A DNA stretch of 64,000 nt from the NCBI GenBank assembly GCA_965279375.1, contig OZ257156.1, positions 4,640,001-4,704,000 of the forward strand, given 5' to 3'. Position numbers and translations under genes: made by a program. Source of the DNA: Gemmatimonas sp. (lineage in GTDB: Bacteria > Gemmatimonadota > Gemmatimonadetes > Gemmatimonadales > Gemmatimonadaceae). This document shows, piece by piece, positions 36,723 through 59,520 of this stretch. The notes beneath the pieces are model-generated. The model was not told where the DNA came from. It saw nothing but the letters and a program-made list of their open reading frames with translations, and searched no databases. Position 1 is the stretch's first letter. Each line of letters begins with the position of its first letter.

Positions 36723-36881
36723 GGGATTCATGCCCTGCAGGTGGGAGTGCAAATCGAGACGTCGGAAATGTAGCAAGCCGTCCACCAATGTGTTGCACGC
36801 ACGCTTCACGGATTGACAGGGCTCTTTCGAGGCATGGAATTCCTCCCACGAATATTCTTGGCTCCCCATCCGAGGCGTACG

Positions 36882-39704: not shown

Positions 39705-39770
39705 CGGCAACACGGCCTCGCCGCCGCCGCGGCGAGGCCCCCACGCCCCGTCCCGCCTTCCCCACAACCC

Positions 39771-39813
39771 AACACGCCTCCGGTCCTTTCCCGACCGGAG
39801 GCGTGTTCGGTTT
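39771..39813 (+). terminator. Strong hairpin, probable terminator
   Basis: AACACGCCTCCGGTC-ctttccc-GACCGGAGGCGTGTT, perfect 15-bp stem; weak U tract. Confidence 0.55.
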
Positions 39814-39856
39814 AACCCGCTCTTGACCGTCTCTTTGCGCCGTCCTAAGGTGGCGA

Positions 39857-42800
39857 ATGAGACTTCTGGTCCAGCACCAAAGCACGTGGGCGTACCCCAC
39901 ACCGGCCGCACTTGGGCCCCATCTGATCCGCCTCGCGCCCGCCAGCCATACGAAGGCTCGGATCGAGACCTTCGGCCTCAACGTCGGCCCCACCGCCGGC
40001 GATATCCGCTGGCAACAGGACCCCTACGGCAACAAGGTCGCGCGCCTCACCTACCCCGCCGGCACTCGCGTGCCCGCGCTTCAGGTGGGCATCGAGTTCA
40101 CCTGCGAGGTCAAGCCGGTCAACCCGTTCGATTTCTTCGTCGATGACCGCTGCAAGGAAGCGCCCTTTGCCTATCCCGCCGAGCTGCAGCCCGACCTCGC
40201 CCCGTTTCTCGACCTGCGCGACGCGTCGTTAACCGGTGGCCCGAAGCTCGACGCGTTTCTAGACGCGCTCCCCCGCGATGGCGACACCGTCCAACTCGTC
40301 GTCGCCCTCAACGAGGCGGTCAATCGCGTCACGCGCTACGTCATTCGCGAAGAGGCGGGCATCTGGACGCCGGAAGAAACGCTCACGAACGGCCGCGGCA
40401 GCTGTCGCGACTCCGCCGTGCTGCTCATCGCCGCGCTCCGCTCCCGCGGACTCGCCGCGCGCTTCGTCAGCGGATACCTGATTCAGCTCACCGACGAAGG
40501 CATGATCCCCGGCGCGCCCAAGGGCGTCTCGCGGGACGTCGTCGATCTGCACGCGTGGGCCGAGGTCTTCATTCCAGGCGGCGGCTGGATCGGTCTCGAT
40601 GCCACAAGCGGACTGCTGTGCGGCGAAGGACACATCCCCCTCGCCTGCACCGCCACGCCGCCGCTCGCCGCGCCGGTCGAAGGCACGAGCGACACGCAGG
40701 CCGAGGGCGTCAGCTTCACAATGCGCATCGAGCGGCTGGGCCACGAGCCGCAGCCCACGCGCCCGTACGAAGAGTCGGTGTGGGAAGCGCTGCTGGCCGC
40801 CGGCGATCGTGCCGACGAGGCACTGCGCGCTGCCGGCCTCACGATGACGATGGGCGGCGAGCCGACGTTCAACGGGCGCGACAACCCGTCGTATCCCGAA
40901 TGGAACGGTGATGCACTGGGCCCCGACAAAACCAAGGTCGGTCGCCGCTTTGCCGCCGGTCTCGTCGAGCGACTCGCGCCCGGCGGCATCATCATGGAGC
41001 GCGTTGGCAAGCAGTATCCCGGCGAGAGTCTGCCGCGCTGGGCGCTCGACATCATCGGCCGACGCGACAGGCGCCCCATCTGGCGTGGCCCCACGCTGGT
41101 CGACCCCACCGGCGCCACCACGGCCGACGCCACGCGCTTCGCTGCCACACTCGCCGGCCGCCTCGGACTCGGCCGCTTCGTCATTGCCGCCTACGAAGAC
41201 CCGTGGCGCGCCCTGCAGGACGAAGCCAACCTCCCCATCGACGTCGATCCGCGTACCGCCAAGCTCACCGACTCGGAAGAGCGCCGACGTCTCGCACGCC
41301 TGCTCGATCGTGGCATCAACACCGAAGTGGGATACGTGCTGCCGCTCACGCGCTTTGAAGGCGCATGGGTGAGTGATCGATGGACGTTCCGTCGCGGCAA
41401 TTGCTTTCTGCTGCCCGGCGACGGACCGATGGGGCTGCGCTTGCCGCTGCAGTCGCTCACGGCCGCATGGGTGGCCGCGCCAACAGAAGCCTCGCTCGAC
41501 GCGCCCGATCCGCGACGCGAGGCCGCACTCAAGGCCGAAGACGAACGACAAGCGCGTTTACGCGCGGCGTTGCAGCGCGTGATTCAAACGCAGCGCGAAG
41601 GTAGCCGACAGACGCAGAGTTCCGTTGGCATCATTGGTGGCACAGTGGTGCAAGGAGCCACGGTGCGCACCGCGCTCTGTGTGGAGGCACGCGATGGTGC
41701 ACTGCGCGTCTTCTTTCCGCCGCTCGAAACGCTCGACGATTTCCTCGCGCTGCTGTCCGCGGTCGATCGCACGTCGCAAGACCTTGGCTTGCCAGTCGCG
41801 CTCGAAGGCTATCCGCCGCCGTCGTCCAACGAGCTGCAGAAGTTCTGCATCACCCCCGACCCCGGAGTGCTGGAGGTCGCACTCACACCCGTCACGAGCG
41901 TGCGTGAACATGCGGCCCTCGTGGACACGGTGTTTGACGTCGCGTTGCATGCGGGGCTACACAGCGAGAAGTATCTGCTCGACGGTCGCATGGCCGGCAG
42001 CGGCGGTGGCAATCACATCACCTTCGGTGGACCGGAGCCGCTCCAAAGCCCCTTCCTGTCGCGCCCTGATCTGCTGGCGAGTCTGCTCACCTTCCTGCAG
42101 CACCATCCGTCGCTGTCGTACATGTTCTCGGGGCTGTTCGTCGGCCCCACGTCCGAAGCGCCGCGCGTGGATGAAGCGCGACACGACGCGCTGTACGAAC
42201 TCGAGATCGCGCTCGACCGCGCGCACGATCGCTCGCAGCCCACGCCCACGTGGCTGACGGACCTCCTGTTCCGTCATCTCCTCGTCGACGTGGCCGGCAA
42301 CACGCACCGCGCCGAGCTCTCGATCGACAAACTCTTCGATCCCAACACGCCGTACGGCCGACAGGGTATCATCGAGATGCGCGCCTTCGAAATGCCGCCG
42401 CACCCGCGAATGATCACGGCGCAGGCGCTGCTGCTGCGCTCACTGCTCGCGAGCTTCGCGCACGAGCCGTATCAGGCGCCGCTGGTGCGCTGGGGACAGA
42501 CGCTGCATGACAAGTTTTTGCTCCCCACGTTTCTCTGGCGCGATTTCGAAGACGTGCTGGGGTTTCTCGACGCGCGCGGCTTCCCGCTTCCTGTCGATGG
42601 CTACAAGCCGTTCGTCGATCTGCGCTGTCCGCTGGTGGGCACACTCGACGCGGGCGACATCGTCCTCGAAGTGCGCAACGCCATCGAGCCTTGGCCGGTG
42701 CTTGGCGAAGAAGCGACACCAACCGGCACGTCGCGCTACGTCGATTCGTCGATGGAGCGCATCGAAGTACGGCTGCGTGGTGCGGTCGCCGAGCGCCACG

Positions 42801-43210
42801 TCGTGCTGGTGAATGGTCACCGCCTGCCGCTACGGCCATCTGGCGTTGCATCGGAGCTCGTCGGCGGTGTGCGATTCCGCGCGTGGGCACCGCCGCACAG
42901 CCTCCATGCGCATCTTGGCATTCATCACCCGATCGCGCTCGACATCGTCGACACGTGGGGGCGTCGCTCGCTCGGCGCGTGCGCCTATCACGTCTGGCAT
43001 CCGGAAGGGCGCAGTTTCGATTCGCCGCCGCTCACCCGATTCGAAGCATCCGCGCGTCGCGCACAACGCTTCACGCGAGAATCGCCGTTGCGGGCGCCGG
43101 TGCAGCCTCGCGAAGCCGCCGCGCACGGCGACGCTCCCTACACGCTCGACCTGCGCCGCTACCCTATCGATCGTCCGCCACCACGCGGTGAGGAGACTGC
43201 CGACTCGTGA
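39857..43210 (+). CDS. Transglutaminase-like domain fused to DUF2126 putative amidoligase
   Basis: WQQDPYGN, NPFDFF, GSCRDSA (Cys), DLHAWAEV, WIGLDATSG, TMGGEPTF, YPGESLPRW, TPDPGVLEV, GGGNH, GNTHRAE, RYVDSS, YHVWHPEGR. Confidence 0.9.
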   Translation: MRLLVQHQSTWAYPTPAALGPHLIRLAPASHTKARIETFGLNVGPTAGDIRWQQDPYGNKVARLTYPAGTRVPALQVGIEFTCEVKPVNPFDFFVDDRCKEAPFAYPAELQPDLAPFLDLRDASLTGGPKLDAFLDALPRDGDTVQLVVALNEAVNRVTRYVIREEAGIWTPEETLTNGRGSCRDSAVLLIAALRSRGLAARFVSGYLIQLTDEGMIPGAPKGVSRDVVDLHAWAEVFIPGGGWIGLDATSGLLCGEGHIPLACTATPPLAAPVEGTSDTQAEGVSFTMRIERLGHEPQPTRPYEESVWEALLAAGDRADEALRAAGLTMTMGGEPTFNGRDNPSYPEWNGDALGPDKTKVGRRFAAGLVERLAPGGIIMERVGKQYPGESLPRWALDIIGRRDRRPIWRGPTLVDPTGATTADATRFAATLAGRLGLGRFVIAAYEDPWRALQDEANLPIDVDPRTAKLTDSEERRRLARLLDRGINTEVGYVLPLTRFEGAWVSDRWTFRRGNCFLLPGDGPMGLRLPLQSLTAAWVAAPTEASLDAPDPRREAALKAEDERQARLRAALQRVIQTQREGSRQTQSSVGIIGGTVVQGATVRTALCVEARDGALRVFFPPLETLDDFLALLSAVDRTSQDLGLPVALEGYPPPSSNELQKFCITPDPGVLEVALTPVTSVREHAALVDTVFDVALHAGLHSEKYLLDGRMAGSGGGNHITFGGPEPLQSPFLSRPDLLASLLTFLQHHPSLSYMFSGLFVGPTSEAPRVDEARHDALYELEIALDRAHDRSQPTPTWLTDLLFRHLLVDVAGNTHRAELSIDKLFDPNTPYGRQGIIEMRAFEMPPHPRMITAQALLLRSLLASFAHEPYQAPLVRWGQTLHDKFLLPTFLWRDFEDVLGFLDARGFPLPVDGYKPFVDLRCPLVGTLDAGDIVLEVRNAIEPWPVLGEEATPTGTSRYVDSSMERIEVRLRGAVAERHVVLVNGHRLPLRPSGVASELVGGVRFRAWAPPHSLHAHLGIHHPIALDIVDTWGRRSLGACAYHVWHPEGRSFDSPPLTRFEASARRAQRFTRESPLRAPVQPREAAAHGDAPYTLDLRRYPIDRPPPRGEETADS

Positions 43211-44679
43211 CAAACAGCCTGCCCTCCAGTCTCTTCGAACGCTATCAGTCACCGCCGGGCACGTATGACGAACTCTTCGACGCCACCGGTGCCGCGCGCG
43301 ACGCGTTTCACCGTGTGCTGGCCGCCCTCGGCGCGTCATCGCCCGAAGACTTCGCCAAAAGTCAGGCGCTCGCCGAAGTGGCAATGCTCAAGCAAGGCGT
43401 CACCTTTTCGGTGTACGCTGACAATCGTGGCACCGAAAAGGTCTTTCCGTTCGATCTGGTACCACGCATCGTCGCCGCGCCCGACTGGCAGCCGCTCGAG
43501 CGTGGGCTCGCGCAACGCGTGCAAGCGCTCGGACATTTTCTGGACGATGTCTACGGCGAGCAGCGCATCCTCCGCGACGGCATCATCCCGCGCGAGCTGG
43601 TGCTGGGCGCACAGCAGTACCTGCCCGTCATTCACGGCGTGAGGCCGGCCGGCGGCGTGCGTGTCCACATCGCGGGCATCGATCTCATTCGCGATGCGGA
43701 CGGCTGCTTCCGCGTGCTCGAGGACAACGTGCGCACCCCCTCCGGCGTGTCGTACGTGCTGGAGAATCGCCTCGTCACCAAGCGCATCTTCCCGCGCCTG
43801 TTCGAGCAGGCGTCAGTGCATCGCGTCGATCACTACCCTACGCGACTCGGCGAAACGCTGCGCAGCGTCTCCCCGCGCGACCCGGATGAATCCACCGTGG
43901 TGGTGCTCACCCCCGGGTCATACAACTCGGCGTACTTCGAGCACAGCTTTCTCGCGCGGCAGATGGGCATCGAGCTGGTGGAGGCGCCGGACCTGTTCGT
44001 CGAGCACGACAAGGTGTTCATGCGAACCACGCGCGGACCGAGGCGCGTGGACGTGATCTATCGCCGCACCGACGAACTCTTTCTCGACCCCGAAGTCTTC
44101 CGCCCCGACTCCGTGCTGGGTGTGCGCGGCCTCATGCGCGCGTGGGCCGCCGGCAACGTGACGTTAGCCAACGCGCCGGGCAATGGCGTCGCCGACGACA
44201 AGGCGATCTATCCGTTTGTACCGGACATGATTCGCTACTACCTCTCGGAAGCGCCCATCCTCGAACAGGTGCCCACGTACGTGTGCCTGCGCGACGAGGA
44301 CCGTCGCTACGTGGTGGACCATCTCAGCGAGCTGGTGGTGAAGGCCGTGGATGAATCGGGCGGCTACGGCATGCTCATGGGACCACAGGCGTCCAAGAAG
44401 GAGATCGACGAGTTCCGCACGCGGATCGAGGCCGACCCGCGCAAGTACATCGCGCAGCCGCGCATCGAACTCTCTACCTGCCCCACCTGGGACCCGAGCA
44501 AGCGCTGCATGGAAGCCCGTCGCGTGGATCTGCGTCCATATATCCTCTCCAATGCGCAGGGCCCGTGGGTGCTGCCCGGTGGCCTCACGCGCGTCGCACT
44601 CGTGCCCGGATCCTACGTCGTCAATTCGTCGCAAGGCGGCGGATCGAAAGACACGTGGGTGCAGAAGGGGGTCGCATGA
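43207..44679 (+). CDS. Circularly permuted type 2 ATP-grasp protein
   Basis: FPFDLVPR, VLEDNVRTPSGVSY, NSAYFEH, NAPGNGVADDK, GGYG, DLRP, VVNSSQGGGSKDTWV. Confidence 0.93.
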   Translation: MTNSLPSSLFERYQSPPGTYDELFDATGAARDAFHRVLAALGASSPEDFAKSQALAEVAMLKQGVTFSVYADNRGTEKVFPFDLVPRIVAAPDWQPLERGLAQRVQALGHFLDDVYGEQRILRDGIIPRELVLGAQQYLPVIHGVRPAGGVRVHIAGIDLIRDADGCFRVLEDNVRTPSGVSYVLENRLVTKRIFPRLFEQASVHRVDHYPTRLGETLRSVSPRDPDESTVVVLTPGSYNSAYFEHSFLARQMGIELVEAPDLFVEHDKVFMRTTRGPRRVDVIYRRTDELFLDPEVFRPDSVLGVRGLMRAWAAGNVTLANAPGNGVADDKAIYPFVPDMIRYYLSEAPILEQVPTYVCLRDEDRRYVVDHLSELVVKAVDESGGYGMLMGPQASKKEIDEFRTRIEADPRKYIAQPRIELSTCPTWDPSKRCMEARRVDLRPYILSNAQGPWVLPGGLTRVALVPGSYVVNSSQGGGSKDTWVQKGVA

Positions 44680-45662
44680 TCTCACGCGTTGCCGACTGCT
44701 GCTTCTGGTTAGGGCGCTATGTCGAGCGCATCGAGGCGACGGCCCGCCTGCTCTCCGTTACGCGCACCTTGGCGATGGACGCCGAGCTGGAGCCGCGGCA
44801 GTGCTGGCTGCCGGTCGTCATCGTGATCGGTGAAGAGCCGCAGTTCATCGACCGCACGACGGAGTCGCCCATCGCGCAGACCTCGGGCGAACAGGTCGAA
44901 CGGTACATGACGTGGGATGAGCAGAACCTCTCCTCCATCAAGGCCTCCATCGCCGCCGCGCGAGAGAACGCACGACAGATCCGCGAGGTGATCAGCCTCG
45001 AAGTGTGGGAGGCGATCAACGAGTTGTATCTCTGGATGGGTGGCGCCGATGCACGCGCTGAGTATGCGAGCGATCGGTACATGTTCTATCGGTTCATCCG
45101 GCAGCGCTGTCAGTTGGTTGCAGGGCTGCTGCGCTCCACCATGCTGCACGAGCTCCCGCTCAACTTCATCTGGCTGGGCATGCTGCTCGAGCGTGCGGGG
45201 CAGACGGCACGCGTGGTTGACGTGCAGCACCACGCGCTGGTGATGCGCGAGCGTGAAAATCAGGTGATCGAGACCGCGCTCTGGCTCTCGCTGCTGCGAG
45301 CCTGCTCGGCGTTCGAGCCGTTCACCAAGCGCAACCGCGGGCGCATCACCGGCGACGCCGTGGCGCACTTCCTGATCTTCGAGCCGCTCTTCCCCAAGTC
45401 CATCGCCTACAGTGTGCATGAGGCATGGCGGCGGTTCATGGTCATTCGCCCGCCGGAAGAGCCGGATCTACCCGGCGCTCGGAGCGCGGAGCGGCTGCGC
45501 GCGCTGGATCGATGGATCGCCGACAGGGCCGCGGTCGGGGCCGCTGGTGACGTTCACGGCATGCTCACACATGTTGTGGATGAAATTGCCGATATTTGTA
45601 CGGACATCGGTGCCGAACTTTTTGGCCACGCGTCCGCCCCCGCCCTGGAGTCTGCGCAGTAA
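44676..45662 (+). CDS. Alpha-E domain protein
   Basis: MISRVAD..FWLGRYVERIE..AR, ARENAR.IRE.IS.E.WE, LG..LERA..TAR, FPKS. Confidence 0.92.
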   Translation: MISRVADCCFWLGRYVERIEATARLLSVTRTLAMDAELEPRQCWLPVVIVIGEEPQFIDRTTESPIAQTSGEQVERYMTWDEQNLSSIKASIAAARENARQIREVISLEVWEAINELYLWMGGADARAEYASDRYMFYRFIRQRCQLVAGLLRSTMLHELPLNFIWLGMLLERAGQTARVVDVQHHALVMRERENQVIETALWLSLLRACSAFEPFTKRNRGRITGDAVAHFLIFEPLFPKSIAYSVHEAWRRFMVIRPPEEPDLPGARSAERLRALDRWIADRAAVGAAGDVHGMLTHVVDEIADICTDIGAELFGHASAPALESAQ

Positions 45663-47491
45663 TGCCCAAGTACCTCGCGATGTCGTTCGAAGGCGACTTC
45701 GCACCCTCGTTCGACCTGCATTGCCTGCGCCCCGGACGTCGCCCCCCTGATGGCTGGGGGCTGGGCTACTACCCGGGCGGTGGACAGGCGGCGGCTGTTC
45801 TCAAGGAACCGTCTCCACCGTTCGGCAGCATTCGCAGTGAGCTGGTGAAGGCGTGGGAGCATCTGGAGTCGTCGCTGTTCGTGCTGCACATCCGCGTGGC
45901 CACGTGGGGCCCAGTCAGCGACGCCAACACACAGCCGTTCGCGCGTAGCTGGGGCGGGCGCGATTGGTTGATGGCGCATGCCGGCAGCCTGACACAGCGG
46001 TTGCCACAGCGTGCAGGGGCGCGCTTTGAAGCGGTCGGCTCCACCGACACGGAACAGCTCTTCTGCGAACTGCTCGACCGCGTTGCAGACATGGGCTGGC
46101 GCTCGCTCGGCGATGCCGACCCCGAGTTGTTGCGTCGCTGGTTCGCGGAAGTGAACGACAAGGGTGTGCTCACCAGTTGCCTCACCGATGGTCGTGATCT
46201 GGCGGTCTACGCCGACGAGCATGGCGACGGCGACGTGTACGTGTGCGAGATCGTGCCGCCGTTCAACGAGATGTCGTTTGGCGATGAGGATCTCACCGTC
46301 GATCTCGGTCAGCGCGGCGTGAAGAGCCGGAAGGGCGTTGTGGTGTCGAGCGATCCGTTGCAGGTGACTGGCATCAAGGACGCCAAGTGGCGCCGGTTGC
46401 CGCCCGGCCATCTGCTGATCATTCGGCAGGGGGCGATTCGCGTGGAAGTCGCACCCCCCGCGAGTGAGACCGCCGACTCCGCGAGCCCGCTGATCACCGC
46501 AGACGTCATGGGACCCAACGGCGCAGAAGCCGCGGTCATCCGCCGCGCGACGACCGTGCATCCCGTCGCCGCGCCGGTGCGCCAGCTCGAGATCGTGCAT
46601 CACACCGTGTATCGCTACAAACGTCCCGTCGAACGCAGCACGCACAACTTGCGTCTCGTGCCGATGCAGGATCATCTGCAGCGCTTGCTGTCGCACACGC
46701 TGACGGTCACGGTCGACGGACAGCCTCTTTCCACGCCGCAAAGCGCAGAGTACGAAGACGTCTTCGGCAATCGCGCGCAACGCCTGCTCATCGAGCGTCC
46801 GTATCACGAGCTCTCGATCGAGTCACGCGCCACCGTCGAGCTGTACGACACCGATCCGCTCTCGTTCCGTCCGTTGCGCGTGCGCTCCTCCATCCCGCTG
46901 GTGTGGATGCCGTGGCAGCGACAGATCCTGCAGCCGTTTCTGTTGCCTCCGGAGCTGCCGGAGAGTGAGCTCAACGAGCTGCTCGACTACGCGATGAGTT
47001 TCGTGAAGCGCAACGATTCCGATCTGCTGGAAACGTTGCTCGACATCAACAACTCGATCTTCCGCGAGTACGCGTATCGGCAAGGCACCACGACGGTCTC
47101 TACGACGCCGTTCGAGGTGTACGTCAACCGCTTTGGCGTCTGCCAGGATTTCACCAACCTCTTCATCTGCCTCGCGCGCCTGCTCGGCGTTCCGGCGCGC
47201 TACGTGTGCGGCTACGTGTACACGGGCCCCAGGCACGTCAACCAACGCCAGTCGGAAGCGTCGCACGCGTGGGTGCAGGTGTACTTGCCCGAAGTGGGCT
47301 GGAAGGGATTCGATCCGACCAACGGCATCCTCACACAGACGGATCACGTGCGCACCGCCGTGGGTCGCAATTACGTGGACGCCACGCCAACGTCAGGAAC
47401 GATCTACGTGGGCGGTGGCTCGGAGTCGCTGTCGGTGGACGTGCGCGTGTCGCCGACGGAAGCGGTGGCAGAGACGGTTGCGGTGGGTTGA
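45662..47491 (+). CDS. Fusion: degenerate class II glutamine amidotransferase (Ntn) domain + transglutaminase-like domain
   Basis: N half: DGWG, HIRVAT, NTQPF, GSTDTE. C half: HHTVYRY, DVFGN, GVCQDF, SHAWVQVY, GFDPTN, GRNY.DATP. Confidence 0.85.
   Translation: MPKYLAMSFEGDFAPSFDLHCLRPGRRPPDGWGLGYYPGGGQAAAVLKEPSPPFGSIRSELVKAWEHLESSLFVLHIRVATWGPVSDANTQPFARSWGGRDWLMAHAGSLTQRLPQRAGARFEAVGSTDTEQLFCELLDRVADMGWRSLGDADPELLRRWFAEVNDKGVLTSCLTDGRDLAVYADEHGDGDVYVCEIVPPFNEMSFGDEDLTVDLGQRGVKSRKGVVVSSDPLQVTGIKDAKWRRLPPGHLLIIRQGAIRVEVAPPASETADSASPLITADVMGPNGAEAAVIRRATTVHPVAAPVRQLEIVHHTVYRYKRPVERSTHNLRLVPMQDHLQRLLSHTLTVTVDGQPLSTPQSAEYEDVFGNRAQRLLIERPYHELSIESRATVELYDTDPLSFRPLRVRSSIPLVWMPWQRQILQPFLLPPELPESELNELLDYAMSFVKRNDSDLLETLLDINNSIFREYAYRQGTTTVSTTPFEVYVNRFGVCQDFTNLFICLARLLGVPARYVCGYVYTGPRHVNQRQSEASHAWVQVYLPEVGWKGFDPTNGILTQTDHVRTAVGRNYVDATPTSGTIYVGGGSESLSVDVRVSPTEAVAETVAVG
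47355..47457 (+). repeat. Direct repeat copy 1 (3' end of the transglutaminase gene; attL-like)
   Basis: Ungapped match to 53773-53875 (offset 6418), about 10 mismatches in 103 bp by manual count; 46-bp identical core at 47391-47436. Confidence 0.92.
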
Positions 47492-47495
47492 GTGG

Positions 47496-50400
47496 TCAGC
47501 TGTTGGGTGGGTCGGGTAGCGTTGTCAGCGCCGTGAGTGCCTGCAGGCGATCGCTATCGTCCGCAAGTTTGGCCAGCTGTAGTTGCGTAGCGGCGAACGC
47601 GGCATCGCGCTGGACGCGGTAGGCCGCGTATTGCTCCCCGCGACGCGTGAGGGTGAGGATGCCGAGTACGGCTCCTGCCCACGCGTCGCCTGCGTCGCGA
47701 CGCTCGCTCAGATGCGCCGAAACAGAAGGCGAGAGCAGCTCCTCCAAGTGGTCCGTCAAATATTCGGACGAGAAGCCCGCAGTGGACCACTCGTGGACGG
47801 CAACTCGCGCGAGCAACGGCGCGTACGCTTCGACGATGCCATCGCTGCGCGCCTTCGCGAGCAGGCCGCGACGCTGCTGGACGGCTGTTGGATTCGCACC
47901 GGCGTCGAGCAACTCGAGCAGGAGCGTATCGCTGCCCGGCTCCAACAGCTCCGGATGCGCCGCGAGATAGTCGCGTGAGTGCGACCAGCTATCCGCGTTC
48001 CACCACGCCACAGCCAGACGATCGAGCGCCGGATCGATGCGCAGCCACTCCGGCACGTCGCCTGCCGCATGTTGCCAGTGTGCATCGAAGACATCCGGAT
48101 ATCTCGCGCGTTCGCGACGTGCAATCATCCGCAGATATCTCGCGCGCCCGCGTACGAGCTCTGGCTCGCTCAGCGCCGCGTGTAGGCAGCGCACAGTTTC
48201 CCCGAACTGCTCAACAGGGCGCGAGCGCAGTATCTGCAGGTTTTCGACAAGCGACGGGTTGTCCGCCAGGGACAGCAGGACCGCGTTCCAGACCGCGTCG
48301 TCGGCGCCCGAGAGCGGCGCAGCCAGCAGTTCCGCCGCTCGCAACTCTCCCTGAGCGATCGCGCGGAGCCGATTGATGCCCTCTGCCATAACGGACGCGC
48401 CCTCATCTTCCGCACCGGTCTCGTTCAGAGCGCGACCCCGAACGATGTATGCCAACGCCAGCGCCACAGCGCTCGCCGAACGTCCAGGACTTTCCAGCAG
48501 CGCGAGCGCACGCGTCGATAGCGAAAGCGCACTCGCGAAGTCGTCAGCCTTGAGCTGCATCAGGCTCAGATTGAAAAGCGCCGTCCCAACCCACCCGTCG
48601 GATACGCCTCGCAGCGAATCCACGTCCAGCAGAGCGAGTGCTTCTTCCAACGACCGGCGGGCATCCTCAACGCGATCGAGCGCAAGCAACGCTGCGCCAG
48701 CGTTGAGCGCGCACACGCCGCGGGGCAACCCCGTCTGCCCGGACGCTTGGTACGGTGCCAGCACCGCGTGCGCTTCCGCCGCGAACGCCAGCGCCTCCAG
48801 CGGCCGCGCCTGCGTCACGCAGCCGCCGGTGAGATCAGCAAGCAACGACGCCAACTGCAGTGCGGACGCCAGCGTACTGATGTGCGCCTCGCGGAAGGCC
48901 TCAAGCGAACCTTCGCGTGCCTCTGCCGCCTCCTCGCTGCGGCCGAGCTGTTCCAGCATGGCGAACAGTCGACCCCACGACGCCACGGTTCCGCGACGAA
49001 CGAGACGATCGGGGGACGAGCTCATCAACGTGATCGCTTCTCGTTGGCGATCGACCAGTACTTCCGTAGCGCCGCCCGTCGCTATCGCAACCGACGTGTC
49101 GACCACGATGCCCAGAATCGCACGGAGCTGCGCGCTGCGCGCCGACGAACGCAGTCTCTCCTCGAGCGACGCGAGTTCGGCGAGTCCCGTCCTCGCGTCC
49201 GTGCTCAGCAATTGCACTGCACGTTCGAGCTGTACCAGCGCCAACGAGACCTGCGCGTCGGCGTTGCTCTCCGCGTGTGGACTGATCAGGCCAAGCGCTT
49301 CATTCAGCAACGCCAGCGGATCGGTCCCGATCGGAGACGCCCAGCCGAGTATCCCTTCGACGCGCATCGTAAAGGCGAGGAGCCGCAACCCTTCCGCCGT
49401 GGCGACGTCGAGAATCGTACCCGTCGCTTGGCGCGCACGGTGCAGTATCGCCACGCGCTCAGCGGCCAGTGGTCGTGGTCTCGTATCCGCAGGCCGCACG
49501 CCAGTAGCACCGCTCTCATAGAGCGCGCCGACAAGCTCGGCCACCTCGATCTTGGCGCGAATCACCAGAGCATCCACCAGCAGGGCGATGCGATGGTCGC
49601 TCGACTCCGTCTCCGCGTCGAGCAGCGTGATCGCGCGCCGGCTATAGCCGTCGGCGCTCGTCATGTCTCCTAGCGCTTGCGCGGACTGCGCCGCCAGGTA
49701 GAGCGCGCGAGGCAGCTCGAATGCGCGCACCTCCGGTTCGTCGACGAGCGACTCGAGCAGTTCGATTGCCTCTTGAGCAACCCGAACAGATGCGCGCGGA
49801 TTTCCGAGCCGCAGTTGTGAAAGCACCCGCGCGGTCAGCGTCCCCGCCAGCGTTCGTCGTCCAGACGATTGCTCGGTCGCGTTGCGCGCGATGTCGGAGG
49901 CCTCCGTAGCCGCGGCATCGGACTCTTCCGATTCCTCCGCGGCGCCCAACGCGGAGGACAACGCGTACAATGCCATCGCAAGCTCCATCGGCACGCCGAG
50001 CTGGCGCTGGATGTCGACGGCCTCTCGTTGCAATTCCACCGACTCCTTCGGCAATCCGCGAAGCAGTGCGGTGCTGCTGACGACCGCCAGTGCTTGGGCG
50101 AGGCTGGGGAGGAACGCGTCGCGATCGCGCTCCACCAGTCGGCGCAATAGGACGATCCCCTCCGGCCCCGCATCCGCGAGATGTCGCCAGGCGTGACGCC
50201 AGAGGTACGGGTGCGCCTTCGGCGGCTGCCCTTGATCGAGCAGGGACTCATACTGCTCCGCGATGGCCGTCGCGATCGCGCGTGCGGCCTCTGGCAACAG
50301 ACGTCGTCCGAGCGCCGCACCGGTCGTGGGCCGCAGATAGTCCACCAAGCGCTGGTGCGCGATGCGAAACACGCCCTGATCGCCTTCGGATCCGGCCACC

Positions 50401-52277
50401 ACGTGGCGAGCGAGCGCGTCGAGCAACGCGTACACATCGTCGCGCTGATACGTTGTGCCGCTGGGCGAGAGCGCGGTCGCCACCGCCGGCCAGACATCAT
50501 CAGGCGGGAAACCGCTTCCCAGCGCACAGGCAAGCGCGCGCATCAGTTCACGTGCCGCGCTGGGGTGTGCGCGACCGCCGATCATGAGCACGGTCTGTTC
50601 GAGGTCGCGTTCGAGCGCCGCCTCCACGCCGGTGGGCAATCGGTCGCGCCAATCCGCGCGACTGGTATCCACTGGTGTCTCGCGCAGCTGCGAGGTCACC
50701 AGCCGCGCGAACAGGAACGGTCCCGCGCCGAGCGGTGCGTCAGCGGCGGCGGCTTCGATGATCGCGTCGGCAACCAGCGTGGGATCCATTTCGCGTGAGA
50801 CGCTTTCCAGTCGACGCACCACGTATCGGCGCACATCCTGCATCGTCTCTGCGGCATCGTCCGCGAGATTGATCGTCTCCCCGGTGGTGCCAAGCAGCGC
50901 CAATAGTCCCGGTTGCCCCGCGCCACTGGAGACCTCGCGCGTACCCACCAATACCAGCGCCTCGCGCGAAAGGGGCTGCACCACTTCGAGTGCGAGATTG
51001 CGGCACTCCGTGTCGCCCGCTTCGTCGAGCCCGTCAAGCACGAGCATGAGCGGCCGTCCCTCACGCTTGCGGCGGGCGGCAAGTCCCAGAATGTCGTAGA
51101 TGCTCGAATCCGCGTCGAGCTCGAGTTGTTGCGCGAGATTCACGACGGCGGTGCGTGTATCCAGTCCACGACAGTGCAACTGCGCGCTCACTGTTCCTTC
51201 ACCTGGATCAAGCGTGTCGGGGATGTCGTCTTGCGTGAGCAGGCGCGCCCGCTCCCAGGAATCAGACAGACTCGCGATGCGCCCGAGAACAGCGGACTTC
51301 CCCGAGCCCGCGGGCCCGGTCACAACACATGTACCCGGCGCTCTGCGCGCGATCCACGACACGATGCGCGACAATACGCTGGTGCGCCCGGTGAAGAACG
51401 AGATGTCGGCTTCCTGCGGCTGGGCGACCGCGCGCTCGTCAGGATCACCCTCCGGCGCCAGGCCTCGCGTACGCACGCGCGAGGGGCCGCGAAGCACACC
51501 ACGTGACGTGCCGCGCGCCGCCTGGAGCAGATGCTCTACCACACGATGCTGCGCCTGCGGCCGATAGAGGGGATTGCGCAGCATCGGCCACGCATTGCCC
51601 GTCGAGGCCTGTTGCGGTGAATGCCGATCCTCCGACCACTCCTTCAACAACGCGTCGATGACATCGTCGCCGCGCACGCGCGCATCGTACACTCCCCAGC
51701 GCAATCGTAAGCGTTCGTCCTTGGGACCTTCGGTGAGCAGTCGCTTGAGTTCGCGCGGCAGCGCACCGCTCAGCGATTCCTCATCGGCGCGCGACGCCGA
51801 CACCACGCCGAACCACGCGGAGCCCGGATCCTTACGTCCGGCGATCACCGCGTCGGCCATGGCGAGGGCCGGCGCCACCCCGCCGCCGGAGAAACAGGTG
51901 TCCACGACCACGAGCACTTGCGACGCGCCGGTGCGCGCGGCCCATGCACCGAGTTGCGCAGCACTCGCCACTTCGTCGTCGCGCACGTCGTCGGCGCGAC
52001 TCATGAGCAGGACGTCGCCGTCCGGCCCCGGCGCTCCGTGTCCGATCCAGACCACCACCAGCACGCCGCCCTGCAGCGATTGCCTGCCGAGCGCCCCTGT
52101 GACCTTCCCCAGCAAATCACCCTGCGTCAGGTCGGCAAGCAGCACGCCGTCGAAACCATGCTCGGTCTTCAGGTGTGTGACCAACTCCGACGTATCAGGA
52201 ACTGCGCGCTGGAGCGGCGCGAGCTTCGCGTATGCCCCGTTTGCGATCGCGACAACCCGGTGCGCCTGCTCGCTCAC
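47496..52277 (-). CDS. Caspase-like (C14) protease - STAND/NACHT-like NTPase - TPR repeat protein, ~1593 aa
   Basis: VVAIANGAY..L..L, WIGHG (His), VVDTCFSG (Cys), SAS; FTGR, GPAGSGKS (Walker A), LVLDGLDEAG (Walker B), LVGTR, FRIAHQ; TPR-like helical repeats; GTGA overlap with the lipase stop. Confidence 0.85.
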   Translation of the reverse strand: MSEQAHRVVAIANGAYAKLAPLQRAVPDTSELVTHLKTEHGFDGVLLADLTQGDLLGKVTGALGRQSLQGGVLVVVWIGHGAPGPDGDVLLMSRADDVRDDEVASAAQLGAWAARTGASQVLVVVDTCFSGGGVAPALAMADAVIAGRKDPGSAWFGVVSASRADEESLSGALPRELKRLLTEGPKDERLRLRWGVYDARVRGDDVIDALLKEWSEDRHSPQQASTGNAWPMLRNPLYRPQAQHRVVEHLLQAARGTSRGVLRGPSRVRTRGLAPEGDPDERAVAQPQEADISFFTGRTSVLSRIVSWIARRAPGTCVVTGPAGSGKSAVLGRIASLSDSWERARLLTQDDIPDTLDPGEGTVSAQLHCRGLDTRTAVVNLAQQLELDADSSIYDILGLAARRKREGRPLMLVLDGLDEAGDTECRNLALEVVQPLSREALVLVGTREVSSGAGQPGLLALLGTTGETINLADDAAETMQDVRRYVVRRLESVSREMDPTLVADAIIEAAAADAPLGAGPFLFARLVTSQLRETPVDTSRADWRDRLPTGVEAALERDLEQTVLMIGGRAHPSAARELMRALACALGSGFPPDDVWPAVATALSPSGTTYQRDDVYALLDALARHVVAGSEGDQGVFRIAHQRLVDYLRPTTGAALGRRLLPEAARAIATAIAEQYESLLDQGQPPKAHPYLWRHAWRHLADAGPEGIVLLRRLVERDRDAFLPSLAQALAVVSSTALLRGLPKESVELQREAVDIQRQLGVPMELAMALYALSSALGAAEESEESDAAATEASDIARNATEQSSGRRTLAGTLTARVLSQLRLGNPRASVRVAQEAIELLESLVDEPEVRAFELPRALYLAAQSAQALGDMTSADGYSRRAITLLDAETESSDHRIALLVDALVIRAKIEVAELVGALYESGATGVRPADTRPRPLAAERVAILHRARQATGTILDVATAEGLRLLAFTMRVEGILGWASPIGTDPLALLNEALGLISPHAESNADAQVSLALVQLERAVQLLSTDARTGLAELASLEERLRSSARSAQLRAILGIVVDTSVAIATGGATEVLVDRQREAITLMSSSPDRLVRRGTVASWGRLFAMLEQLGRSEEAAEAREGSLEAFREAHISTLASALQLASLLADLTGGCVTQARPLEALAFAAEAHAVLAPYQASGQTGLPRGVCALNAGAALLALDRVEDARRSLEEALALLDVDSLRGVSDGWVGTALFNLSLMQLKADDFASALSLSTRALALLESPGRSASAVALALAYIVRGRALNETGAEDEGASVMAEGINRLRAIAQGELRAAELLAAPLSGADDAVWNAVLLSLADNPSLVENLQILRSRPVEQFGETVRCLHAALSEPELVRGRARYLRMIARRERARYPDVFDAHWQHAAGDVPEWLRIDPALDRLAVAWWNADSWSHSRDYLAAHPELLEPGSDTLLLELLDAGANPTAVQQRRGLLAKARSDGIVEAYAPLLARVAVHEWSTAGFSSEYLTDHLEELLSPSVSAHLSERRDAGDAWAGAVLGILTLTRRGEQYAAYRVQRDAAFAATQLQLAKLADDSDRLQALTALTTLPDPPNS

Positions 52278-53662
52278 GCCAACGCCCCGTTCCACACGAG
52301 GAAGGGATGCGTGACCGGTGCTGGACCGCCGGCGATCGCGCCGCTCACACGCGCGTGATAGCCACCGGCCGGCAGTGGTCCGAGCGTTGCCCACCCGTCC
52401 TTGCCAACGACGGTCGCAGGTCCCATCTGCTGCAACCGTTCGTCAAACACCGTGACGTGAAGGCGATCGTCACCTTCGTCATGCACGCGGAGTCGGGGGC
52501 GATCTTCAGGTGACCATAGCTCCGCCATCGAGACGCCGATGGTCGATGGCGCGGTCGACTGCCAGATCACGTCTTCACGCGTGAGCAAGCCGTCGATGAG
52601 ATCGAGCGCGGAACGAGTGCCCTGCAGCTCCCCATGCTGATTGGCAACTTCGAGCACCTCACGATTCCTCCCCTGCACCGGTTGGGAGGCAAGGCGCGGC
52701 ACCGTTCCATCGCCACCCTGACTACTCCCGTCGATCTCCTCCGAAGCGATCAGTCGTCCATGCGACCATGCCGCCGTCGTCAGGGTGGGCTGCCGGATGC
52801 CCACGACCTTGTGGAACGCATACGCGGGCTCCGGCGAGGCATCGAGCGTCGCGTGAAAGGCGAGGGCGTCGTCCTGCATAGCGCGGGAGACGTCGGGGAG
52901 ATCGAGGCCGTGCAGACTTCGACGCGGCACATCAGTACCGAGATCGAGACAGTCGTACGTCGGCAGCAACTGATGCAACGACGGCAGACTGCGAGCGAAC
53001 TCTGTGAGATGGAGATGAAACGGCCCGAGGCTCGGCTCGAGGCCGTTCGACAGCGTATTCAGCGCTTTGAGGGCGCCGCGATGCGGCGTGCCGATGGTGA
53101 TCAGCGTGCGGGTGAAAGCGGCACCTCCTTCCTGCTCGAGAAACCACCGCGCGATCAGTCCGCCCATTGAATGACACACCAGCACGAGGCGCGACTCTTC
53201 CATGCCCGGCTGCTCACGCCAGCGTGCCAGCGCGTCTTCGGCGACGACCTTCAGCAGGCGCGCGTTATAGCGATTCGACAGCCGCCAGTCGTAGGGAAAC
53301 GAAATCAGATTGGGAATGCGATCCGGATCGCGCGGATCGGGCTCGATCATCTGGAAGCGCGTGCTCCGCAAAAACTCGAGTGTCCCATCGTACCCGGTGA
53401 TGGGGCTCCACAGTCCTGGGATCACGTGAAGGCTCGGCAGCAGATGCGTCGCACGAATCCTGTTGCCTGGCGGGGCCTCATCGCCGATGCCGATTGGCAG
53501 TGCGAGCGACTGCAGTGAACCTCCGAGCGTCTTGATCGCGTTGACCAGGCTGCCCGCCTCAAGCGACCAGATCGGCCCTCGCTCCATATGCTCCAGAGCG
53601 CTCCCCATGATGCCGGGGATGACGATGACGACGTCGCGAACGAGATTCGTATCCACAGGCAT
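52274..53662 (-). CDS. LCAT/PGAP1-like alpha/beta-hydrolase (lipase/acyltransferase)
   Basis: VIPGIMGS, FPYDWRLS, CHSMGG nucleophile elbow, GTPHRGA, GDGTVP, QHGEL. Confidence 0.87.
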   Translation of the reverse strand: MPVDTNLVRDVVIVIPGIMGSALEHMERGPIWSLEAGSLVNAIKTLGGSLQSLALPIGIGDEAPPGNRIRATHLLPSLHVIPGLWSPITGYDGTLEFLRSTRFQMIEPDPRDPDRIPNLISFPYDWRLSNRYNARLLKVVAEDALARWREQPGMEESRLVLVCHSMGGLIARWFLEQEGGAAFTRTLITIGTPHRGALKALNTLSNGLEPSLGPFHLHLTEFARSLPSLHQLLPTYDCLDLGTDVPRRSLHGLDLPDVSRAMQDDALAFHATLDASPEPAYAFHKVVGIRQPTLTTAAWSHGRLIASEEIDGSSQGGDGTVPRLASQPVQGRNREVLEVANQHGELQGTRSALDLIDGLLTREDVIWQSTAPSTIGVSMAELWSPEDRPRLRVHDEGDDRLHVTVFDERLQQMGPATVVGKDGWATLGPLPAGGYHARVSGAIAGGPAPVTHPFLVWNGALA

Positions 53663-53772
53663 TGGGCGACCGGCGCGGCGCGCGGCGAGGCAACGGACGG
53701 AACGTCAACTGGGCTACCGCGGAAGAAAGTATCTCCCGCAGGCCATCCGCGTGATAGGGCTACCGCGCGCTT

Positions 53773-53909
53773 CCGACGTGGGGCGCAACGACGTGGACGC
53801 CACGCCAGCGTCAGGAACGATCTACGTGGGCGGTGGCTCGGAGTCGCTGTCGGTCGACGTACGCGTAACCCCGACTGTGCTCGTACCAGAGGCGGCTGGC
53901 GTCAGCTGA
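53773..53909 (+). pseudogene. Direct repeat copy 2: displaced transglutaminase gene 3' fragment with its own stop (attR-like)
   Basis: Encodes DVGRNDVDATPASGTIYVGGGSESLSVDVRVTPTVLVPEAAGVS* versus AVGRNYVDATPTSGTIYVGGGSESLSVDVRVSPTEAVAETVAVG* in copy 1; stop at the same relative position. Confidence 0.85.
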
Positions 53910-53930
53910 GTCGACAAGAAACCGTAGCCA

Positions 53931-54536
53931 TCACTCGGCGCGTCGGTATTCCATGTAGCGCGCCGTGTCGTCGGCCACCGCCTTGCCGTACAGCCGCTCG
54001 ACCATCTCCAGGGACATGTCGATCCCCGCCGAGATGCCCGCCGATGTGACGACGCCATCGTGCACGACGCGCGCATCGCGCTGCACGTCGATGGTGGCGT
54101 CCAGCGAGGCGAGCGCATCGAGGGCGCCCCAATGAGTCGTCGCGCGCTTGTGCGCGAGCAGACCAGTCTGCGCCAACAGCAATGCACCCGAACAGACGGA
54201 CGTGACGTGAGTCGCGTTCGCAGCGGTCGCGAGAATCCAGTCCAACGTCGGAGGGTGTTCCAGCAATGGTCGCGTTCCCCAGCCGCCGGGCACCACGAGT
54301 AAGTCGATCGGTGGTGCCGACGCGAAATCGTAGTTCGGCAGCAATTGTAGTCCGCCGGTCGCCGTCACCGGCCCAGCGCGTTCCGCAACCAGAAATACGG
54401 AGAACGGTGCGCTCGCGTCGCTTCGCCGTGAGTCGAGCCCGGGCTCGAGGCGCGTGCGGGAGAACACCTCAAACGGCCCCGCAAAGTCCAGCACCTCGAC
54501 CTGGTCGAAGACCAGGATACCGACGGTTAGCGTCAC
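53931..54536 (-). CDS. DJ-1/PfpI family protein
   Basis: FDQVEVLDFAGPFEV, VPGG.G, SVCSGA, ATTHW, TSAGISAGID. Confidence 0.9.
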   Translation of the reverse strand: MTLTVGILVFDQVEVLDFAGPFEVFSRTRLEPGLDSRRSDASAPFSVFLVAERAGPVTATGGLQLLPNYDFASAPPIDLLVVPGGWGTRPLLEHPPTLDWILATAANATHVTSVCSGALLLAQTGLLAHKRATTHWGALDALASLDATIDVQRDARVVHDGVVTSAGISAGIDMSLEMVERLYGKAVADDTARYMEYRRAE

Positions 54537-54752
54537 GACTGCTCCTGATAAGACGGAGATAGGACTCTGCGACTACGGCTCCGCATGAATCTCCGATCAC
54601 GCGCTCGAATAGAGAAGTCGGTCGTCCCCGCGTGTGTGTGGTGGGCGATGACGCCACTGGTCCTCAAGAATCCGTGCGCGCAATCCGAGACTGCAGCTGA
54701 GGTCGACGCCGGCCGTGTAGGCACCTCACGCCATTCGCCGGATCTACCTCGC

Positions 54753-56222
54753 ATGCGCATTCCGTTCTTCGCTCCGTCTGACGAAGTCGCTCGTCTCAAG
54801 GCACAACTCGCGCAGGTCACCGAGCGGTCGGATGTTCTCGACCAGTCATGCGGCGTGGGGTTGTGGGACGCAGTGTTGTACAACGCGGACGCGCTCGATC
54901 CGCGCAGCGTGTGGACCTGGTCGCCCGAGTTCCGTCGCCTCATCGGCTACAGCAGCGAAGCGGACTTCCCCAACGTCTGCCAATCGTGGTCGGACAAGCT
55001 GCATCCCGATGACGCGCCTGCCACATTTGCTGCGTTCGGCGGCCACCTCAAGGAGCCCAACGGCACCGGCCACTACGACGTCACCTATCGTCTCAAGATG
55101 AAGGACGGCGAGTACCGCTGGTTCCGCGCCAGCGGCGGCTGCCGTCATTCTGCAGACGGGCAGACCATCCGCGCCTGCGGGTCGCTCACGTTCATTCATG
55201 AGCAAAAGATGCAGGCGCTCAAGATCGAGCAGGATGCGCACTACGATCAGGAGGTCATCGCCGCTCTTGCCGACGGCCTCAAGGCGCTCTCCGACGGCGA
55301 CCTGCGGCATCGCATCGTGGCGGAGGTGCGCCCCACCGCGCAGCCCCTCAAGGACAGCTTCAACGCAACGGTCGAGCAGCTGCACGAAACGATCTCGCAG
55401 GTCAGCGCTGCCTCCTCGCAGGTGAAGAGCGCCGGTGAAGAGATCGCGGACGCGAGTCAGTCGCTCGCGGACGGCGCGACTCGTCAGGCCGCGAGCCTGC
55501 ACGAAGTCACCAGCAGCCTCGACGAGCTGGCATCGATGGCGAGCACGAACGCCACGTCAGCACGCAAGGCCAGCGAGCTTTCGTCGGTGGCGCGTTCCCA
55601 TGCGAGCGACGGCGAAGCACGGATGGCCAACCTCACGGCGGCGATGGCCGACATCAAGGCCTCCACGCAGGAAACCGCCCGCATCATCAAGACGATCAAC
55701 GAGATCGCGTTTCAGACCAACCTGCTCGCGCTCAACGCGGCCGTCGAAGCGGCGCGCGCTGGCGATGCGGGCCGTGGCTTCGCCGTCGTTGCCGAGGAAG
55801 TGCGCTCACTCGCGCTCCGAGCGGCCGCCGCTGCGAAGAGCACGGAAGCGCTGATCGAGAAGAGCGTGACCGCGACTGAACGCGGCGTGCGACTGAACGA
55901 TGAGGTCCTGAGCAGCCTGCAGGAAATCACCGGCCAGATCGCGCAGGTGGTGACCGTCGTGAGTGAGATTTCCGTCGCCAGCACAGGTCAGGTAGATGGC
56001 GTCTCGCGTATCACGCGTGCGGTGGCGGACGTGAACAACATCACGCAGCAGGTCGCTGCCAGCGCCGAGGAGTCGGCGAGCGCCGCCGCAGAACTCAACG
56101 CGCAGGCCAGCACGCTCAACGATACGGTATTGACGTTCGCGCTCGAGGAGGATGTGTTCGGTGAAGCGACACATGCGCCGGCGCGTCGTCCCGCACGCGC
56201 GATGGCGGGACGAGGGCGCTAG
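54753..56222 (+). CDS. Soluble PAS-domain methyl-accepting chemotaxis protein
   Basis: GLWD...[27 protein letters not shown] (PAS); [37 protein letters not shown]; no TM segment. Confidence 0.92.
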
Positions 56223-56223
56223 C

Positions 56224-59109: not shown

Positions 59110-59147
59110 TCTTAGTGCTAAGATATAGACCAATTGTCCGTCGTCAA
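59110..59147 (-). promoter_or_regulatory. Sigma70-like promoter with overlapping palindromic operator upstream of the dioxygenase-esterase pair
   Basis: Minus strand TTGACG-N16-TATCTT; palindrome TCTTAG-NN-CTAAGA at 59110-59123 overlaps the -10. Confidence 0.6.
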
Positions 59148-59154
59148 CCCGTGG

Positions 59155-59520
59155 CCGGTTATGCCGTTCGCTCCATCGGGTTCTAGCGGTAACCGGTCAC
59201 GCGGTTCGCTCCATCGGGCTCTACGGGTAACCGGTCACGCCGTTCGCTCCATCCGGTTCAACCGGTTACCGGTCACGCCGTTCGCTCCACTCAGGACTGG
59301 CCACCCACCACTCGCGACCCGAAACAGAGGAGTGTCAGAGCGGCGGCAGCACGCAGTCGCCAGTCCCCGGTTCAGGGTTTCTCACTCAGATCAAGCGGGG
59401 TCGAGGACCGCCAACCCGACACAACCCTGTTGCGGGCTACGGGTGGTGAGTGGCGGGAGATCAGTGGAGCGAACGGCGTGACCGGTGACCGAACAGCGAA
59501 CCGCGTGACCGGTACCCGGT
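59155..59520. repeat. 38-bp tandem repeats (x3.5) with inverted copies enclosing a long hairpin
   Basis: Units start at 59155, 59193, 59231 and 59269 (core CCGGTCACGCCGTTCGCTCCA); reverse-complement copies at ~59463-59486 and ~59496-59515; self-complementary interior. Confidence 0.85.

Follow-up and report, generated by a model that had tools for sequence, protein, structure and literature searches.

Two alleles of one gene end flank a hydrolase/caspase cassette in Gemmatimonas sp.: a possible scar of homologous integration

Introduction

How does a block of foreign genes come to lie directly behind another gene, leave that gene intact, and strand a second copy of its end downstream, with no integrase nearby? 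This question is raised by a 64,000-nucleotide stretch of Gemmatimonas sp. DNA (NCBI GenBank assembly GCA_965279375.1, contig OZ257156.1, positions 4,640,001 to 4,704,000 of the forward strand; hereafter the window, in whose numbering positions are given). Within it, a gene for a transglutaminase (TGase) fusion protein, the target gene, is followed by a cassette of two minus-strand genes and then by a second copy of the target gene's 3' end. An original prediction, made from the letters alone, had described this locus as an integration scar. Here, we report that the two gene ends are alleles that match through the stop codon, that an identical core lies between diverged flanks, that the downstream copy is decaying, that the cassette carries no recombinase, and that the genome holds a second scar of similar kind. 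Our favoured explanation, to which we give about an even chance of being correct, is that the 6.3-kb cassette came from a close relative on a fragment that formed a circle and was integrated by one crossover through the host's homologous recombination, with no integrase involved.

Results

A real direct repeat

The repeat reported in the original prediction was recovered as described. Positions 47355-47457 and 53773-53875 align without gaps, with 93 of 103 positions identical (BLAST E ~1e-34) at an offset of 6418 bp, and the longest exact run is 46 bp (47391-47436). The genome-wide BLAST search proposed at the time found only these two copies in the 5.31-Mb single-contig genome, the next match having E=0.001. 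Both copies continue in frame to a TGA at the same relative position (47491 and 53909). The first stop codon lies 4 bp from the stop of the caspase gene (47496) and the second 21 bp from the stop of the convergent DJ-1 gene (53931).

We compared the locus with Logan unitigs of a single sample, from which the genome itself may derive, in four runs; one joint of side 21 in one contig was disregarded. The unitigs match the two copies and the cargo with 0 differing letters. The 46-bp core forms a separate unitig at ~2x the depth of its flanks, and the depth of the cargo in the four runs (6.0, 22.3, 20.2 and 5.1) is close to that of the flanking sequence (4.1-5.9, 23.8-24, 18.9-23.3 and 8.2-8.3). 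Could the repeat nonetheless be an assembly artefact, or chance? Because the unitigs are interrupted at the 46-bp core, they leave the order of the segments unproven, and integrated and excised forms give an identical graph. However, an assembly error by collapse or duplication is unlikely because independent unitigs reproduce both copies and the cargo without differences, with the core at ~2x depth. The two copies also differ at 25 positions, and the E value argues against chance. The assembly artefact that the original prediction had named as a possible refutation is thus improbable, and we give this explanation next to no credence.

Two alleles of one gene end

What exactly has been duplicated? 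Homology extends beyond the 103 bp and through the stop codon: 112 of 137 positions in 47355-47491 are identical in copy 2 (82%), as are 21 of the last 36 bases (47458-47493; p=1.3e-4). These alignments therefore indicate that the duplicated unit is the entire gene end, including the stop codon, and that the two tails are homologous, diverged alleles. The "different 13-aa tails" of the original prediction are in frame and do stop at the same position, but they are not unrelated. Likewise, the gene has been regenerated as was claimed, but its "alternative C-terminus" is no more than another allele's version of the tail, which is not conserved and lies outside the folded domain.

Divergence between the two alleles is unevenly spread. 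In the core, 19 of 20 codons (47375-47434) are identical, with 0 synonymous differences and 1 non-synonymous difference; the flanking codons comprise 7 that are identical and 8 that differ synonymously (Fisher p=3.5e-4, for core/flank boundaries picked after inspection of the data). For a 46-bp identical run, given the observed number of differences, a permutation test gave p=0.0002 across 135 bp and p=0.010 when confined to the conserved part. The core does not appear to be a site conserved at the DNA level, because relatives are free to vary at its third positions. To the right of the core, 11 of 20 differences fall at third positions (p=0.038) and there are 0 indels, which is the expectation for two coding alleles.

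This pattern bears on the idea of a local target duplication, in which break repair at the time of insertion copied the gene end and copy 2 then decayed neutrally. Such a picture has been drawn for insertions of restriction-modification (R-M) genes with long target duplication (PMC2853133), and copy 2 is indeed decayed. However, this route predicts even divergence, whereas we observe 1 difference in the 62-bp core and 15 in the 36 positions of the distal tail. The third-position bias, the complete lack of indels, the retention of the stop codon and a cargo that has no nuclease domain also argue against it, and we regard local duplication as very unlikely.

Copy 2 is degenerate at three conserved positions. 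An alanine found in 78 of 81 relatives is replaced by aspartate, as is a position that is tyrosine or tryptophan in 81 of 81. A threonine found in 81 of 81 is replaced by alanine, although this threonine lies within the motif used to select the rows, making its invariance a matter of construction. The simplest reading of these comparisons is that coding alleles of two lineages were joined through a tract that recombination equalised, and that copy 2 is now decaying. Coordinates are collected in Table 1.

Table 1. Features of the locus (window positions)
Feature	Positions	Strand	Remarks
Copy 1, working 3' end of the target gene	47355..47493	+	part right of the core probably donor-derived
Homogenised core	47375..47436	+	20 codons, 47375-47434; exact run 47391-47436
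Copy 2, stranded and decayed allele of the gene end	53773..53911	+	part right of the core probably the resident's original tail
Target gene, GATase_4 + Bact_transglu_N + Transglut_core fusion	45662..47491	+	last gene of its operon
Operon DUF2126-TGase / CP-ATP-grasp / alpha-E / GATase-TGase	39857-47491		
Caspase-like protease + STAND NTPase + TPR region, 1593 aa	47496..52277	-	4-bp overlap of its GTG start with the hydrolase stop
LCAT/LPLA2-fold alpha/beta-hydrolase, 462 aa, with C-terminal beta-rich domain	52274..53662	-	Pfam LCAT
Leader of cargo and novel joint, 110 bp, non-coding	53663..53772	.	11-bp direct repeat at 53711 and 53757
DJ-1/PfpI gene, convergent	53931..54536	-	host-like GC3 (GC content at third codon positions), 0.80
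Larger variable region: operon, cassette, DJ-1 and PAS-MCP (methyl-accepting chemotaxis protein)	39705..56223	.	between Ig-repeat gene and SprT-like gene

Recombinases

The general layout in the original prediction (cargo at the 3' end of a gene, the gene regenerated, a second end stranded downstream and no integrase in cis) agrees with what we find. The insert and its immediate surroundings have no integrase or transposase. Four PF00589 matches occur in the genome, the nearest 71 kb from the cassette; judged by their context, these are probably XerD, XerC, an integron integrase and a tRNA-Thr-linked integrase. No serine recombinase was detected in the genome by a match to PF07508 or PF00239. 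The integron is chromosomal (contig C1 of this genome, our G000, positions 1246147-1391798) and consists of a tyrosine recombinase followed by >110 attC-like repeats (112 merged repeats by self-BLAST, 126 profile matches). About ten further attC-like matches are scattered elsewhere, for example at 316894, 318304, 673920, 904962, 911836 and 923854. A profile built from the genome's own attC sites reached only E=0.36 at best in the window, and an integron gene cassette was rejected as an identity for the insert, there being no attC at its end.

Might the cassette be the remnant of an island, or a non-autonomous one, whose integrase was lost or acted in trans on the gene end, with attP supplying the replacement tail? 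A regenerated target with a displaced fragment is the classic signature of an island (PMC4383910), an 11-bp direct repeat lies just inside the right end of the cassette, and the genome has an integron integrase and a large attC array. Against this, the two genes fill 47496-53662 and leave no space for remnants of an integrase, the attC profile finds nothing in the window below the E value given above, the target is a rare accessory gene, and the 160 related loci described below include no other occupied site. In addition, the two scars of this genome hit unrelated genes and share no end motif, such that one enzyme would need to have been aimed at two unrelated accessory genes and cleanly deleted twice. 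An island is thus quite unlikely, and the dedicated site-specific element at an unusual target that had been suggested for this locus finds no support.

A second scar in the same genome

For 4192 script-predicted genes, we scanned the 240 bases at either end for similar duplications. Of the 14 candidates listed, two are clean gene-end duplications through the stop codon: the cassette locus and C1:2171375-2171444, whose second copy lies 11,344 bp downstream, on the far side of a type I R-M block. This second scar (C1:2171375-2182788; L180:5376-16789) duplicates the last 23 codons of a 563-aa outer-membrane-like gene and encloses two genes in addition to the R-M block, without an integrase; the differences between its repeats are all synonymous. 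The duplicate occurs in 0 of 16 relative loci, and one relative, G052, has the empty site. Since the sequence downstream of that empty site matches the sequence that follows copy 2, copy 2 of the second scar is the displaced original. G052 also matches this copy at 5 of the 7 differing sites, including the two leftmost. The two cassettes have no convincing end motif in common (the best of 8 alignments was equalled by 4 of 100 shuffles). Among the matches listed for 8 regions with type I R-M loci in relatives, no repeat brackets the R-M genes.

The leftmost matches of G052 fit homology-facilitated illegitimate recombination (HFIR). At the cassette locus, HFIR would mean that a linear donor fragment recombined upstream in the gene, that its other end was joined illegitimately immediately ahead of the last 137 bp of the resident, and that later conversion between the copies made the core identical. 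ComEC is present, and HFIR has been proposed for displaced 3' ends at type VI secretion system (T6SS) loci of Vibrio and at Rhs loci (PMC5361080). However, HFIR usually deletes resident DNA similar in size to the insert, ~1 kb each (PMC3240628), and the identical core demands a second event. We therefore consider HFIR possible but unlikely at the cassette locus.

Three further duplications were noted. In relative G041, a third, more decayed 3'-end copy lies 1.2 kb downstream of its source (C1:97855-98133 and 99137-99350; L213); two short open reading frames lie between, and the copy ends just before the hsdM gene of a type I R-M locus, 88% identical to that of the genome studied here. Relative G075 has two close copies of the outer-membrane-like gene, on C163 and C39 (L187 and L188; 75% and 74% identical to the query). 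In the genome studied here, a 77-bp orphan copy (C1:425167-425243), 0.9 kb downstream, is 84% identical to an internal piece near the 3' end of a presumably EAL-like gene (426148-428898).

Search for an empty site, other cargo and a donor

For the cassette locus, we collected 160 related TGase loci, 80 from genomes and 80 from metagenomes, of which 129 have at least 1 kb and 72 at least 7 kb of downstream sequence; they are not independent, with some duplicates and many Sorangium strains. The comparison with relatives that the original prediction had proposed found neither an empty site nor different cargo at the target gene in 86 genomes of the genus, 300 of the family (no same-species strain among them) and the 160 loci. 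Across the 160 loci there was also no second tail and no homolog of the hydrolase, caspase, DJ-1 or MCP genes, and the variable-cargo hotspot that had been envisaged finds no support. Six short nucleotide matches (25-51 bp) downstream of related genes do not correspond to a second tail at the protein level. Four genomes of the family have a DNA match, with one copy apiece, and 34 downstream proteins from 9 of 11 close loci have ordinary Pfam matches or none.

The cargo

The space between the two gene ends, 47496-53662, is filled by the two cargo genes. In the larger protein, Pfam identifies a STAND-type NTPase and TPRs, with Walker A at 321-328 and Walker B at 415-419. Its caspase-like domain has H80-G81 and D126-x-C128 motifs, H80 and C128 being present in 47 of 47 caspase homologs; the domain matches NF047832 with E 3.5e-9, which is under the cut-off, and has no match by sequence among solved structures. 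In the hydrolase, S165, D318 and H343 are kept in at least 95% of 98 sequences. A structural model of this protein (pLDDT 90.5) has 4x90 as its best match (E 6.7e-14, TM 0.52), suggesting that, among solved structures, its fold is closest to animal lysosomal phospholipase A2 (LPLA2)/LCAT. The catalytic motifs of both proteins are intact. By Pfam, the cargo has hydrolase and NTPase/TPR domains only, with no nuclease, R or M domain.

Homologs of the cargo are spread over Actinoplanes, Kribbella, Lentzea, Bryobacterales and others. For 32 of the best 46 caspase homologs, the contig is equal in length to that of one of the 100 best hydrolase matches; by this proxy, rather than direct synteny, the two genes probably form a conserved pair that travels together. 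No hydrolase homolog at E<=1e-15 was found in 400 other genomes of the class, and the 45 plasmid records with a homolog are each <60% identical. Cargo composition, which the original prediction had named as a check, gave a divided answer: GC3 is low (0.74-0.75, ~5th percentile of 2187 genes), but the GC profile is flat. We found no description of a hydrolase/caspase-STAND-TPR architecture in the literature, of which the supplement of PMC12642450, outside our search, may show one.

The leader and joint, 53663-53772, has no match to attC, a sigma-70 promoter or a terminator. Its 11-bp repeats (53711-53721 and 53757-53767, 46 bp apart) are 2 of 8 copies in the genome and could be a regulator site. 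A stop-free frame that runs into copy 2 (53463-53909) was rejected as a gene; it overlaps the hydrolase gene in antisense.

The surrounding region

The target gene has a close homolog in 2 of 86 other genomes of the genus, plus one partial match at 43%, and its best named relatives are metagenome-assembled genomes of Gemmatimonadaceae. Other close homologs of the peptide-ligase/transglutaminase operon are in Myxococcota and Acidobacteriota. In seven relatives (G011, G041, G042, G043, G052, G072 and G075), the Ig-repeat gene directly adjoins the right-hand neighbour gene, which we take to be SprT-like from its HEMVH motif. Hence, 39705-56223 is variable as a whole; the ends of this 16.5-kb region have no direct repeat over 9 bp exact. 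The original prediction had conjectured an ancestral layout in which the TGase gene was convergent with DJ-1; in the relatives examined, the entire region is missing from this position. The Ig-repeat gene (36813-39704) encodes a 963-aa exported protein with Ig-like repeats of ~103 aa (306-309-nt period), kept at the same site in the genus with an identity of only 41-58%. An intergenic cluster of ~38-bp direct and inverted repeats lies at 59144-59520, and related 250-bp elements, resembling repetitive extragenic palindromes or miniature inverted-repeat transposable elements, are found at C1 positions 205048, 244694, 2703482, 5100841 and elsewhere.

Discussion

We favour a single crossover because one step would account for the diverged-identical-diverged homology, and because an analogue is known from experiment. 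In the donor, the same gene would have been followed by the cassette 4 bp after the stop codon, and a fragment of this DNA would have been closed into a circle at the joint near 53772. If one crossover then took place within the shared core, and ~60 bp were equalised by heteroduplex repair or by later conversion, copy 1 would consist of resident sequence on the left and donor sequence on the right, and copy 2 of donor sequence on the left and resident sequence on the right. Survival of the gene would follow from an exchange in frame and from the lack of conservation in its tail. Through the 46 bp that are still identical, the cassette would occasionally be lost by recombination.

Several points weigh against this explanation. 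None of the steps was observed, and circle, donor and empty site are all reconstructed. Because our searches found neither an empty site nor a donor for the locus, the original tail is assigned by analogy. With ComEC but no Ku, the genome offers no obvious route to a circle. The second scar has no long homogenised core, and its repeat differences appear to fit HFIR, or a crossover at the left edge, at least as well. As for the cargo, PADLOC matched neither protein, and a role in anti-phage defence is predicted from architecture.

What might the cassette do? The TPR/STAND part may sense a signal of an invader, oligomerise and activate the caspase, which would in turn license the lipase, leading to membrane damage and abortive infection. 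We give roughly equal weight to accepting and to doubting this half of the proposal, a caspase-STAND-TPR sensor that activates an LCAT/LPLA2-like lipase. Repeated excision and re-homing of the cassette is unlikely. The full combination, a recombinase-free mobile defence unit that cycles through a circle, homes by anchoring through a gene tail it has captured and carries an undescribed cell-killing module of this type, is improbable.

What is the significance of this locus? The type of scar has already been described, the locus is more ordinary than it first appeared, and one more case changes little. Nonetheless, the diverged-identical-diverged pattern records a recombination tract between alleles and favours homologous integration over copying of the target, and a cargo that has no nuclease argues that the "long target duplication" route requires no breaks made by restriction enzymes. 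The lipase/caspase-STAND-TPR pair is the more open part of the locus. If a caspase does activate this LCAT-type lipase, bacteria would have a further, new cell-death module, whose fold among solved structures most resembles animal LPLA2/LCAT.

Comparison with known systems

The locus works like an "insertion with long target duplication" as defined by Furuta, Abe & Kobayashi 2010 (PMC2853133), who name Nobusato et al. 2000 (their reference 37) beside it. As in the cases described there, the insert is <20 kb (offset 6418 bp), the direct repeat is >30 bp and not dispersed (here 103-137 bp, with two genomic copies), there is no mobility gene, and the repeat spans the stop codon and leaves the target gene intact, repeats across start or stop codons being frequent in that paper. 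In contrast to those cases, our cassette has no R or M gene, whereas the second scar of the genome has them; its copies share 82% of 137 bp and have a homogenised core, in contrast to cases from their Table 2 with identities of 44/46 to 47/47; and the empty site in a related genome was found for the second scar (G052) but not for the cassette. It is a variant rather than a member, because the R-M genes and the empty site are lacking.

The experimental analogue comes from conjugation in E. coli (PMC3240628). Of 60 selected clones, 56 gave the PCR product diagnostic of a duplication, and 14 sequenced clones had gene-end duplications of 109-950 bp. These duplications, in clones selected for HFIR, were attributed to a single crossover of re-circularised donor DNA. 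As at our locus, a gene end is partly duplicated with the foreign DNA between the copies, and no site-specific recombinase is involved. The homology there was an identical laboratory construct, whereas here the alleles are natural and diverged, and the event is a reconstruction. C-terminal displacement at T6SS effector-immunity and Rhs loci (PMC5361080) is alike in that an incoming module pushes the old 3' end downstream, with no integrase known from that account. It brings a new toxin domain, whereas the tail here is allelic and probably neutral, and one round only is seen. Compared with an integrase-driven genomic island, the regenerated target and the displaced fragment are present at the ends of the cassette, but an encoded integrase is absent.

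For the cargo, caspase/hydrolase pairs have been predicted to be conflict systems (Kaur et al. 2020, PMC7159879), and caspase-like proteases fused to sensors, including STAND NTPases, are described in that paper and in PMC12642450. LcHydrolase/LcCaspase was demonstrated to be a death effector activated by cleavage (Evans et al. 2025, PMC12642450). In both systems, an alpha/beta-hydrolase adjoins a caspase-like protease with an intact His-Cys dyad, here with a 4-bp overlap. Set side by side by description, LcHydrolase has 296 aa and is cut at two conserved R-G sites, whereas the cassette hydrolase has 462 aa, is LCAT/LPLA2-like with an extra C-terminal domain, and has one conserved R-G (195-196), after T192-P193 and inside the core fold. 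LcCaspase, at 594 aa, is far shorter than the 1593-aa protein of the cassette.

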